The notes under the pieces are model-generated. The model was not told the origin of the DNA. It ran no database searches and was given only the letters and a program-made list of their open reading frames with translations. From positions 8,131-72,130 of the forward strand of contig JAAVIA010000052.1 in the NCBI GenBank assembly GCA_014799405.1: a DNA stretch of 64,000 nt, given 5' to 3'. Positions 2,501 to 7,915 of the stretch are shown piece after piece (position 1 is the first letter of the stretch; the number at the start of each line of letters is the position of its first letter). This DNA is from Lachnospiraceae bacterium. GTDB taxonomy: Bacteria > Bacillota > Clostridia > Lachnospirales > Lachnospiraceae. A program made the position numbers and the translations under genes.

Positions 2501-2895
2501 AATGAGGCTGTCGTACCAAAATCTGAGTGTATGGCTCGCCTGTGGTTGTCACATGCTGCTATATACACATAAAACATGCTTTCGCTCGTCTCCGACGTAA
2601 CGGTACTAAGAGTTTGGGTTTCGATGCATAGCTACATGGCACATAAAAATCGTTTGAAGACGTGGGTACTTAAATTGCCGGTTCAAGATTCCTTTATATA
2701 GAGATATCTTAAACCGGCAATTTTTAGTACCGTTACGTCGGAGACGAGCGAAAGCGTGTTTTTATGTGCCATGTAGCTATGCATCGAAATCCAAACTCAA
2801 GTACCGACGTCTTCAAACGGTTTTTATGTGTATATAGCAGCATGTGACAGCCGCAGACAAGCCATATCAAATCTGAGTGCGACAGCCTCATTTTT
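2501..2895. repeat. Modular long imperfect palindrome (REP/REPIN-like) between convergent genes, with permuted internal blocks; probably also a terminator
   Basis: Inverted block pairs: 2501-2516/2877-2892 (15/16), 2547-2574/2822-2849 (28/28), 2574-2608/2725-2759 (34/35), 2610-2649/2759-2798 (39/40), 2651-2670/2800-2819 (19/20), 2672-2689/2706-2723 (17/18). T-run at 2891-2895. Confidence 0.9.
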
Positions 2896-3991
2896 AACTA
2901 TAAATTTTTATGAGGTTCTCAAGCTTCGAGGTTGCATTTATCATCATAAGGTCAAGTAATGTAATTGCGCACATTGATTCAACTATCACAACGGCACGTG
3001 GACCGATGATTGGGTCATGACGTCCTTTTATCTCAATTTCCGTTTCCTCATGTGATGAAGTTATTGTCTGTTGCTTTTTATATATGGACGGAGTGGGTTT
3101 AAAGGAAGCCCTTACAAGAATATCGCTGCCATCGCTTATGCCGCCTAATGTACCGCCTGAATGATTTGTAGCCTTAATCGGATTTCCATTTTCTATTCTA
3201 AAAGCATCGTTATTTTCTGAACCCTTGGCACGTTGAACAAGGATGCCGTCGCCCACTTCAACTGCTTTTACGGCACCGATGGACATTATGGCTTTCCCAA
3301 GGCTTGCATCCAGCTTGTCAAATACAGGCTCGCCTATGCCTGCGGGAACACCGCTTATTATACATTCAACTGATGAGCCAATAGAATCCTTGTCTGCCAT
3401 GACTTCTTTTAGAAGTGCCGTTGCAGCCTCCGCAGCAGCAGAATCAGGCATATAGTGTGGATTGTTAAATATTTCTTTTTTTTGAAAATTGGAATAATCA
3501 ATTACAATATCCCCTATTGAGCGTGTATATGATAAGAGATTAATGCCAAGTGTACTTAAAATCTTTGAGGCAATTGCCCCTGCGGCAACCCTTCCTACGG
3601 TTTCACGAGCTGAGGAACGCCCGCCACCTCTGTAATCTCTGAAACCGAATTTTTCATCAAATCCAAAATCTGCATGTCCAGGTCTGTAGCAGTATGCAAT
3701 ATTTCCGTAATCCTTAGATTTTTGATCCTCATTGTAAACAATAAGGGAAATAGGGGTGCCTGTTGTTTTTCCGTCAAAAACGCCTGATAAAATCTGAACC
3801 GTGTCCGATTCGTTTCGCTTTGTTGAAAAATCGCTCTGTCCCGGCTTTCTTCTGTTTAAAAATACCTGAATATCATCTTCAGAAAGAGGTACATTTGACG
3901 GACATCCGTCAACAACTACACCAAGAGCCTGACCATGAGATTCACCCCATGTACTAATTTTAAAAATGTTACCATATATAGAACCTGCCAT
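2894..3991 (-). CDS. aroC: Chorismate synthase
   Basis: [21 protein letters not shown] and GRHDP motifs. Confidence 0.98.
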
Positions 3992-5935: not shown

Positions 5936-7915
5936 ATGAGTCAGCTGGTTTATACAAATGCAAAATGTCAGGGATGTAATCGTTGCATTTCGGTATGTCC
6001 AGTGCTTACTGCAAACTATTCTGTCCGTACAGAAGTTGGACAGCGGATAGAGGTACATAGCGAAAATTGTGTTGCTTGTGGTGCCTGCTTTGATGTTTGC
6101 GAGCATAATGCCAGAGAATATTATGATGACACGGAACAGTTTTTTCGTGATTTAGAACGTGGCGAACAGATATCTGTGCTGCTGGCTCCGTCATTTCAGG
6201 CCAATTATCCAGAGGAATATGCCTCTATATTGGGCGGACTGAAGGATTTAGGCATCAATCGTATTATAAGTGTAAGCTTCGGTGCTGACATTACCACATG
6301 GGGATATATCAATTATATTTCAGAGAATGATTTACAAGGAGGGATTTCACAGCCTTGTCCGGCAGTTGTTAATTACATTGAGCATTATGCACCGGATTTG
6401 ATACAGAAGCTGATTCCGGTTCATAGTCCTTTACTGTGTACGGCGATTTATGCAAAAAAATATATGCATATAACGGATAAGCTGGCATTTATCAGTCCAT
6501 GTATTGCAAAAAAGATTGAGATTACGGACCCAAATACGAATGGCTATGTATCATATAATCTGACCTTCAATCATTTCATGGAGTATGTAAGAAAGCATCA
6601 TATCATTGGAAAAGATGCATCCGATGAGATAGAATATGGTTTGGGAGCTGTTTATCCAACCCCGGGAGGACTTAAGGAGAATGTCTATTGGTTTTGTGGA
6701 GAAGATGCATTTATACGACAGGTAGAGGGAGAAAAACGTGCATATGCCTTTTTAGAGGATTACAGGAAGAGACTTGCCAGAGGGCAGAGATTACCATTTA
6801 TGGTTGATATTCTAAACTGCGACAGAGGTTGCCTTTACGGAACAGGTATTGAAACGGAAAAAAATTATTCTGAGGAAAATTATTATAATCTGCAGGAAAT
6901 CAGAGAACGCTGTAAGAAAAACAGTGAAGAAAATCCATTTTCAAAAAAGCTTACTCCAGTGGAACGTTTAGAACAATTTAACAGGCAGTTTTCCGAATTG
7001 GATATTCGGGATTTTATGCGGAACTATTCTGATAAATCCACCAGTATTTCTTTGCGTGAGCCAAGTGAGAAAGACTTGGAGGATATATTTATTTCCATGA
7101 ATAAAAAAAGTTGGGCACAAAGGAATATTAACTGTGGAGCATGTGGATATGGAAACTGTCTGGAAATGGCAGCGGCAATTTACAATGGCAGTAATATACC
7201 GGAAAATTGTGTTCACTATATGAAGGATGAGCTTCATGCATTTTCTGTCAGGATGAAAAAACAAAATGAGGAATTAAAGCGTGCGATTCAGGAGGAAAAG
7301 GAAGGCGAGCTGTTCATTAATCAGATTATACGTGCGTTTGCAAAAAGTATTGACCTTAAGGACCAGTATACAAAGGGACATTCCTTCCGTGTGGCAGAGT
7401 ATGCAAGGTTGATTGCAACGAGGATGGGATATAATGATAAAAAGCTTGAAAATATTTATCATATTGCCCTGCTCCATGATATTGGTAAGGTTGTAATACC
7501 GGAAGAGATTTTAAATAAGCCGGGGAAGCTCACAGATGGTGAGTATGAAATGATTAAGCTACACGCACAATATGGTTATGATATTTTAAAGGAAATTGAC
7601 AGCCTTCCGAATCTGGCACTTGGTGCGGGATATCATCATGAGCGCGTAGATGGAAAGGGATATCCGAACGGAAAGCAGGAAAAAGAAATTCCGCAGATTG
7701 CCAGAATTATTGCAGTTGCAGATACATTTGATGCCATGCATTCCACCCGTCCATACAGGAAATGTATGCCAATGGAACATATTATTAATGAATTGAAACG
7801 GGTTTCGGGAACCCAGTTAGATGCCCATATTGTGGATATTCTTTTGGAGCTTATTGATGAGGGCGCTTTTGAGGATGATATTCAGGGACAATATGCAGTT
7901 GAAATGGATAAGTAA
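5936..7915 (+). CDS. Sensory-type [FeFe]-hydrogenase-like/Fe-S protein fused to an HD-GYP cyclic-dinucleotide phosphodiesterase
   Basis: 2x[4Fe-4S] ferredoxin (CQGCNRCISVCP, CVACGACFDVC). H-cluster-like motifs SQPCP, SPCIAKKIE, DILNCDRGCLYG. FeS domain CGACGYGNC...C. HD-GYP motifs HSFRV, LHDIGK, HHERVDGKGYP, ADTFDAM, RPYR. Start ATG 5936 follows GAGGAGG. Confidence 0.88.
   Translation: MSQLVYTNAKCQGCNRCISVCPVLTANYSVRTEVGQRIEVHSENCVACGACFDVCEHNAREYYDDTEQFFRDLERGEQISVLLAPSFQANYPEEYASILGGLKDLGINRIISVSFGADITTWGYINYISENDLQGGISQPCPAVVNYIEHYAPDLIQKLIPVHSPLLCTAIYAKKYMHITDKLAFISPCIAKKIEITDPNTNGYVSYNLTFNHFMEYVRKHHIIGKDASDEIEYGLGAVYPTPGGLKENVYWFCGEDAFIRQVEGEKRAYAFLEDYRKRLARGQRLPFMVDILNCDRGCLYGTGIETEKNYSEENYYNLQEIRERCKKNSEENPFSKKLTPVERLEQFNRQFSELDIRDFMRNYSDKSTSISLREPSEKDLEDIFISMNKKSWAQRNINCGACGYGNCLEMAAAIYNGSNIPENCVHYMKDELHAFSVRMKKQNEELKRAIQEEKEGELFINQIIRAFAKSIDLKDQYTKGHSFRVAEYARLIATRMGYNDKKLENIYHIALLHDIGKVVIPEEILNKPGKLTDGEYEMIKLHAQYGYDILKEIDSLPNLALGAGYHHERVDGKGYPNGKQEKEIPQIARIIAVADTFDAMHSTRPYRKCMPMEHIINELKRVSGTQLDAHIVDILLELIDEGAFEDDIQGQYAVEMDK

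Follow-up and report, generated by a model that had tools for sequence, protein, structure and literature searches.

A lineage-restricted family of nested hairpin repeats at transcription-terminator positions in a Lachnospiraceae genus

The stretch of DNA analysed here (the window) comprises 64,000 nucleotides of a Lachnospiraceae bacterium genome (GenBank assembly GCA_014799405.1, contig JAAVIA010000052.1, positions 8,131 to 72,130 of the forward strand), and coordinates without a contig label are given in the numbering of this whole stretch. The 395-bp element at positions 2501-2895 is one copy of a lineage-restricted repeat family, the members of which are long hairpins situated at transcription-terminator positions. 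The permuted look of its blocks is the standard architecture of the family rather than the outcome of a local rearrangement, and there is no sign of ongoing shuffling. On the basis of its sequence, the element is predicted, with a probability of approximately 0.75, to function as a REP/BIME-like, layered bidirectional terminator hairpin in which asymmetric junctions are stacked in opposite polarity.

The building block of the family is evident in its solo copies, which consist of a closing stem, an A-tract, a segment E, the motif GGTACT, an apical hairpin, the motif AGTACC, a segment C', a T-tract and the second arm of the closing stem, with a unit length of ~130-220 bp. The 5' half of the unit reads A4-5, CCGTTTGAAGACGTC (E) and GGTACT, and the 3' half AGTACC, GTTACGTCGGAGACGAGCGAAAGCGTG (C') and T4-5. 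E and C' are unlike in length and sequence, which makes the unit asymmetric, and its halves pair imperfectly to give a three-way junction that includes a two-base bulge and a GCGAAAGC mini-hairpin. In the window copy a + strand inner unit (closing stem D:D', tip F:F') occupies the apical position of a - strand outer unit (closing stem B:B'), the inverted copies thus being nested, not adjacent. The left arm of the element reads A-B-C-D-E-F and the right arm F'-C'-D'-E'-B'-A', and the apparent exchange of C and E, with C preceding E on the left and C' preceding E' on the right, arises because the two units have opposite polarity. The presence of two such units likewise accounts for the perfect complementarity of C with C' and of E with E' in the composite. 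The same outer unit occurs elsewhere in the window's own genome (G000; 61 contigs, 2.8 Mb, with the window on contig C52), where a small apical hairpin replaces the inner unit (C41:61423-61634 and C10:6305-6515), and nests of three levels, + - + and - + -, are present in relatives (L031; L002, L009). Among the ~35 composites in six assemblies no same-polarity nest is found, and the isoform inverted between D and D' that the original prediction had envisaged is therefore absent from all composites examined. The features of the element and its neighbours are as follows.

2501-2529, no strand: base stem, 5' arm (A), which holds GGCTGTCGTACCAAA, the window version of the 15-bp terminal repeat GGCTGTCGCACTAAG, and also the direct 11-mer
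2530-2565, no strand: stem B, 5' arm, closing the outer unit; partner 2831-2866; paired changes on both arms between copies
2566-2830, - strand: outer asymmetric unit (A-tract, E, GGTACT, D stem with inner unit, AGTACC, C', T-tract)
2575-2601 and 2806-2820: halves of the outer unit as seen on the + strand (block C and block E', respectively)
2608-2639, no strand: stem D, 5' arm; partner 2769-2799; serves the outer unit as apical stem and closes the inner unit; strong covariation between copies
2640-2768, + strand: inner asymmetric unit, with A-tract 2640-2648, E 2649-2664, GGTACT 2665-2670, AGTACC 2726-2731, C' 2732-2758 (GCGAAAGC at 2748-2755) and T-tract 2759-2768
2671-2725, no strand: apical hairpin F:F' (TAAATTGCCGG ... 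CCGGCAATTTTT), kept as the tip of all composites
2769-2799, no strand: stem D, 3' arm (pair D)
2831-2866, no strand: stem B, 3' arm (pair B)
2867-2895, no strand: base stem, 3' arm (A'), TCAAATCTGAGTGCGACAGCCTCATTTTT, with a T-run at the end
2-2500, + strand: upstream convergent gene, coding for the C-terminal part of a hybrid sensor kinase / response-regulator protein; stop codon 2498-2500
2894-3991, - strand: downstream convergent gene, coding for chorismate synthase (PF01264, E = 4e-136); its stop codon abuts the element

The gap between the two convergent genes is wholly occupied by the element. A repeat finder recovers six inverted pairs, A (outer arms within 2485-2526 / 2867-2908), B (2530-2574 / 2822-2866, 91% identity), C (2571-2614 / 2719-2762, 93%), D (2610-2649 / 2759-2798, 98%), E (2640-2676 / 2794-2830, 89%) and F (2672-2697 / 2698-2723, 85%). 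These lie where the original prediction had located them, the identity of the extended arms being 85-98% instead of the proposed 94-100%, and the permuted order and core-bounded modules it had described are borne out, the two short cores being found at every block boundary (CACATAAAA at 2566-2574 and 2640-2648; GGTACT at 2602-2607 and 2665-2670). The mismatches between the arms are mostly transitions, as had been stated (14 versus two transversions), and the direct 10-mer reported in the outer arms is real and in fact 11 nucleotides (nt) long (AAATCTGAGTG, 2519-2529 and 2869-2879). Ten other full copies lack any arm-to-arm direct repeat of more than 7 nt; the 11-mer is peculiar to the window copy, where it is a by-product of substitutions in the A arms. 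An origin by insertion into the loop of an old terminator, with the 11-mer as target duplication, was rejected, since the A arms are part of the other copies, in which the direct repeat is missing.

Searching the genome with the whole segment upheld the suggestion of a modular, REP-like, multi-copy cassette, the element being one of ~13-19 near-identical composites in G000. Approximately 12 full-length copies in G000 align with the element from end to end, at 85-90% identity on one strand and 69-75% on the other, and six further composite copies are truncated by contig ends (C47, C60, C19, C58, C25 and C42); numerous shorter relatives were also detected. Block order is identical throughout an alignment of 13 copies, in which stems B and D vary by matched changes on both arms. 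A scan for the two conserved cores identified 13 composites in G000, all with one arrangement, and 16 solos, each comprising one E followed by one C', while five related assemblies from other studies contribute 22 composites with the same arrangement and 27 solos. The interiors of the solos are near-identical between paralogous copies and their base stems differ. Overall, G000 contains ~50 base hairpins and ~49 cores. Across ~185,000 species searched, the core is found in only six metagenome-assembled genomes, all belonging to a single uncultured Lachnospiraceae genus, of which 25 genomes were sampled (6/25). There are two matches in the JGI metagenomes and none in viral contigs, and a phage origin was discarded on the latter ground. 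Five exact copies of the 15-mer GGCTGTCGCACTAAG occur on several contigs of G033, a genome of another family in the same order, where either horizontal spread or a binning error is possible. The record CAZWNL01, which supplies L013, L014 and other loci, bears the title "uncultured Bacteroides sp." but is probably mislabelled, as its chorismate synthase is 96% identical to that of the present Lachnospiraceae genome and its loci are syntenic.

The minimum-energy fold of the element is a single nested rod, both as DNA (-140 kcal/mol) and as RNA (-235 kcal/mol), with imperfect pairing between E and C' and between C and E'. Relative to shuffled sequences the fold has z-scores of -22 (DNA) and -24 (RNA), which excludes chance as the source of the palindrome in the window. 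A hairpin or cruciform can therefore form, contrary to the earlier view that the crossing helices preclude a simple cruciform. Covariation was evaluated in 67 distinct units from six genomes (alignment A1). The unit folds into P1 (AAAAY:RUUUU), P2 (CGUUU:AGACG), a GC-GAAA-GC mini-hairpin, a small purine internal loop, P3 (GACGU:ACGUC), a UU bulge, P4 (CGGUACU:AGUACCG) and an apical stem, and 92.3% of the cells in the alignment are paired in this three-way-junction fold. Double-sided changes are observed at 15 pairs, compared to 6.7 +/- 1.2 after shuffling of columns (none of 500 shuffles reaching 15) and 2-5 when the partners are slid. Within the core, pair 27:99 is C:G in 48 units, U:A in 15 and U:G in four; pair 29:86 is G:C in 62, A:U in three and G:U in two, with none unpaired; and pair 41:73 is C:G in 59, U:A in five and U:G in two. 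This covariation indicates that E pairs with C' inside one strand and, together with the dominance of the nested rod, speaks against the mutually exclusive RNA folds that had been considered for the 3' ends of the two genes. The default pairing of RNAalifold, in which the 5' end of E pairs with GCG(U)G, shows no double changes and some unpaired cells and has less support than the three-way junction. Likenesses to K-turns, hammerheads and dif/Xer sites were judged by eye and dropped as unconvincing. The GCGAAAGC sequence is a classic DNA mini-hairpin of extraordinary stability, the RNA form of which melts at 39 C and is marginally stable (PMC13037366). Its stability as DNA provides a lead towards a possible single-stranded DNA role of the element.

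The outermost arms of the simple, solo and composite forms alike end in a 15-mer inverted repeat, GGCTGTCGCACTAAG / CTTAGTGCGACAGCC, which occurs at 194 sites in G000 when up to three mismatches are allowed and at ~110 sites with up to two, where a control pattern gives 1-3, and which is abundant in the same five genomes that are rich in the core. The sites in G000 form 50 inverted pairs of 30-635 bp, including simple hairpins (30-66 bp), solos (~157-223 bp) and composites (~352-388 bp). An outside T-run or A-run accompanies 40 of these 50 base hairpins and both accompany 18, compared to 24% and 1.6%, respectively, of random positions. The flanks beyond the repeat are also complementary (AAAGG/CCTTT), as in terminators, and the elements start within a few bases of stop codons. 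The A4 and T4/U4 tracts flanking each core are near-invariant, every position being A:U in 65-67 of the 67 units and a change to G:C being seen in a single case, at the outermost pair. Of the 59 classifiable copies, 56 have at least one gene end facing them, the remaining 3/59 lying between divergent genes. Convergent genes flank 22 of 25 composites and nine of 34 solos (Fisher p = 3.6e-6, with orthologous loci counted repeatedly), and in G000 alone the corresponding figures are 12/14 and 4/16 (p = 0.0013). Each layer is a hairpin between an A-tract and a T-tract, and the whole would form a layered bidirectional intrinsic terminator or an RNA 3'-end hairpin. It is this bracketing of every layer by A- and T-tracts which leads to the prediction of a bidirectional terminator, a role that suits a position between convergent genes. 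A 523-bp hairpin in G000 (C1:58285-58807) has the same 15-bp base arms and an unrelated interior, the base stem thus carrying several kinds of cargo.

Approximately 20 of the 32 testable loci are common to more than one species. In ten cleanly aligned orthologous pairs, with the rows summed, the cores are identical at 588 of 593 positions (99.2%), the rest of the element at 1143 of 1300 (87.9%) and the flanks at 6750 of 7252 (93.1%). Since the core exceeds its flanks in identity at orthologous loci, it is constrained at individual loci, unlike the decaying copies of a selfish element, and its near-invariance implies a putative factor recognising the folded single strand. At the site of the window element, the related genomes G021 and G001 have hairpins of 17-26 nt between the same two genes (e.g. 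GGGGCTGCGACAGCCCC), and G004 has a solo of the other polarity, the base stem of which shares the locus-specific CTCAG variant. A 471-nt metatranscriptome contig of run X14 joins position 2529 to 2889 via CGACAGCC, in the short-hairpin form seen in G021, so that a close relative without the composite is present, its site possibly transcribed across. Clean empty sites occur in G000, and three pairs of filled and empty sites show no consistent target duplication and varying outer boundaries. At one locus a third level is present in UBA7076 but not in G000, which has two, the difference lying at the tip (gain or loss). Between G004 and G000 one interior is inverted in place between collinear A and B arms (92.6% identity when flipped versus 81.6% unflipped), and likely flips are found at two further loci. 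At L021 7340-7740 in G004 the outer junction is symmetric, its left arm carrying C and its right arm C', and the inner unit is normal, and the G000 ortholog (C1:39593-40052) keeps the usual E/C' pair. In a minimal element of G000 (C38:30130-30200) E stands opposite its true complement E' (AAAAACGTTTGAGGACGTCGGTAC...CACTACGTCCTCAAACGTTTTT). Judged by their sequences, the junctions at L021 and C38:30145 appear to have been converted to a perfect palindrome. The family would thus change as its inverted arms undergo recombination and repair, the events seen between species being gain or loss of units at the hairpin tip, in-place inversion of the interior, conversion of junctions to perfect palindromes and deletion.

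Several observations weigh against the terminator prediction or limit the evolutionary counts. Termination does not account for an asymmetric core of ~55 nt held at 99% identity, nor for the invariable alternation of polarity in the nests. Solo polarity follows neither the flanking transcription (14 co-oriented and nine opposed; 6:5 in G000) nor the direction of replication as derived from a strong GC skew of +/-0.2 (9 versus 8), and stem mismatches show no excess of G.T (31) over A.C (24). Strand preference was consequently abandoned as a means of telling RNA from single-stranded DNA, there being no bias in stem wobbles, transcription or replication direction, and RNA, single-stranded DNA and an extruded cruciform are all candidates for the active form. 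A count of G.U pairs over whole elements favoured the sense strand of the solos (171 versus 98), but this arises from the invariant core and vanishes in the stems. The lack of a replication-strand bias also argues against mechanisms tied to the lagging-strand template. At one presence/absence site with outgroups, G001 and G021 hold a 17-nt remnant-like stretch, such that gain and loss are not separable, and orthologous copies are counted several times across species, so that separate events are fewer than the counts. It is conceivable, if tentative, that the asymmetric junction is itself a sequence-specific working module, a single-strand three-way junction of DNA or RNA read by a putative factor, new copies of which would enter the tips in opposite polarity to give stacks of up to three levels. 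If so, the family would be a hairpin-borne genetic element or regulatory signal without an HUH transposase, each stack offering one sense module per strand.

Among the explanations in which a mobile element or an enzyme shapes the blocks, active site-specific shuffling or an invertible switch would require a recombinase that works in present-day cells on the CACATAAAA and GGTACT cores. Such activity is very unlikely, even though the cores sit at every module boundary, three orthologous loci differ between species by in-place inversion of the interior, and G000 and G004 hold different interiors in the same base stem at the window site. A single block order, which nesting explains, is found in the ~35 composites of six assemblies, and the predicted same-polarity isoform is absent throughout. 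The end-points of the inversions fall inside inverted arms of 40-70 bp, sufficient for ordinary homologous recombination. Of the proposed invertible element, only inversion over evolutionary time, as between G004 and G000, thus stands, no invertase being implicated. The genome contains seven tyrosine and four serine recombinase genes, none of which is on contig C52, in support of the earlier statement that the window holds no cognate enzyme gene. A 527-aa large serine recombinase (G000 C26:22164-23747), the gene for which ends 7 nt before the composite at C26:23754-24134, was rejected as a candidate, as its ortholog is found only in G004 and it does not track the family; its location is probably a coincidence. 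Contigs from four sequencing runs of related strains contain no clean alternative joint, with the limit that rare variants are lost from contigs, which also end within the repeat, and the single opposite-strand joint, on one contig of run X4, is expected from the assembly of a palindrome. That the permuted order is itself an assembly artefact of a perfect palindrome has a negligible probability. Six contigs of this assembly do end inside copies and palindromes are error-prone in short-read assembly, but the same asymmetric order recurs in 13 complete copies here and in 22 from assemblies of other studies, and E and C', differing in length and sequence, are not mis-joined mirror images. The shared order in six independent assemblies thus shows that the arrangement is not an artefact, a possibility left open originally, and that the permutation is not a local event.

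A non-autonomous element of the REP/REPIN or IS200/IS605 type, mobilised in trans as a hairpin of single-stranded DNA by an HUH Y1 transposase (RAYT/TnpA), is highly improbable. The copies are extragenic, multi-copy, imperfect hairpins with bulged bases, their presence differs between species, and the stability of the GCGAAAGC mini-hairpin, far greater as DNA than as RNA (PMC13037366), would suit such a mechanism. However, the RAYT/IS200 domain PF01797 has no match in the five element-rich genomes G000, G004, G016, G001 and G021, the same search being positive in six of 14 control genomes, and TnpB (PF07282) is absent from all element-rich genomes. The 9:8 distribution of solos over the replication strands despite the GC skew also speaks against the HUH/RAYT enzyme of the original prediction, and the intact cores of the mostly orthologous copies are unexpected for a decaying selfish element. 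Unlikely, too, is a miniature inverted-repeat transposable element (MITE), which would carry variable cargo between its 15-bp terminal inverted repeats (GGCTGTCGCACTAAG), would nest by tip insertion and would have had its DDE transposase lost or left unbinned. The conserved terminal repeat with its variable interiors, the shared abundance of 15-mer and core, the clean empty sites and the near-identical solo interiors within differing base stems are all in keeping with a MITE. Against it are the absence of a target-site duplication, the lack of a fixed outer boundary and the terminator-like complementarity of the outside flanks. A search for a longer autonomous element with the 15-bp ends gave only chance pairs around ordinary genes and no transposase-bearing element, no multi-copy insertion sequence is found in the G000 genome (metagenome-assembled genomes may lack mobile DNA), and IS110 and reverse transcriptase genes were rejected as sources of the cognate enzyme because their presence does not track the family. 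Rather doubtful is a one-polarity cis-acting RNA module, such as a site for protein binding or processing within 3' untranslated regions, with the composite supplying one sense copy to each converging transcript. The covariation-supported three-way junction with its GNRA-type loop, the conserved cores at orthologous loci, the enrichment of composites between convergent genes and the better folding of solo units on the sense strand (mean ~-110 versus -101 kcal/mol) point towards such a module, but solo polarity is untied to transcription, the stems have no G.U excess and r(GCGAAAGC) is only marginally stable. Furthermore, Rfam 15 yields no match, its only hit being a spurious one to a eukaryotic scaRNA, which scored 16 bits where the gathering score is 65.

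The closest known systems are the REP/BIME/REPIN and ERIC-type repeats. The former, found in the Proteobacteria, are extragenic, imperfect palindromes at gene ends, present in tens to hundreds of copies, with proposed roles in termination and mRNA stability, which are built as mosaics of a few motifs with successive units alternating in orientation and are mostly inherited vertically at orthologous sites. The present family shares their extragenic, multi-copy, palindromic nature, the motif mosaic, the alternating orientation and the inheritance at orthologous sites. The defining association with RAYT, a single-copy Y1 HUH transposase gene usually flanked by REPs, fails here, there being no RAYT/Y1 gene and no strand bias, and the family differs further in its nesting, its core conservation and its Firmicute host. 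Units are nested in tips rather than placed side by side as inverted doublets, and a unit of ~130-220 bp with an asymmetric three-way junction takes the place of the 20-40-nt hairpin with a GTAG head. The ERIC/IRU, Correia, RUP/BOX, EFAR and SMAG repeats are 100-400-bp imperfect palindromes in transcribed intergenic regions, with length variants at fixed points and, in BOX, a modular A-B-C structure. Long intergenic imperfect palindromes, internal length variants and a modular build are thus common to both, but the family here has no sequence relation or Rfam match to them and no TA or other target duplication, and it shows strict polarity alternation, up to three nested levels and a core far more conserved than its stems. 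With bidirectional intrinsic terminators it shares a GC-containing hairpin with A-tract and T-tract, located after stop codons and often between convergent genes; the element is, however, 10-20 times longer, occurs as the same sequence at dozens of sites and has a conserved asymmetric junction that termination does not need. Integron attC sites, the CTX phage attP(+) and G4-type single-strand initiation (ssi) sites resemble it in being imperfect hairpins polarised by bulged bases, and ssi sites also in their GCGAAAGC-type mini-hairpins, a likeness which may go no further than form; no integrase, HUH or primase link and no strand bias was found.

The combination of cores at 99% identity with drifting paired stems, alternating polarity, a two-level form favouring convergent gene pairs and the absence of the usual enzymes is unusual among bacterial repeats. 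It also illustrates that a sequence can look scrambled although nothing has been rearranged, whenever a single hairpin contains an asymmetric motif in both polarities. Should folded DNA or RNA turn out to be recognised through the core, the family would represent a Firmicutes counterpart to the long-debated REP/BIME systems and a tractable model for the tolerance and use of long palindromes in bacterial chromosomes. In practical terms, the repeat fragments the short-read assemblies of these gut bacteria and also marks their probable terminators. In other species of the genus a different long hairpin is situated at the orthologous terminator, downstream of the chorismate synthase ortholog, at L080 (G006) and L082 (G011). 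The tip of this hairpin contains GAGCGAAGCGAG, a mini-hairpin of the GCGAAGC type enclosed by a GAAATCGAG/CTCGATTTC stem, and the hairpin may belong to a sister family of such repeats.

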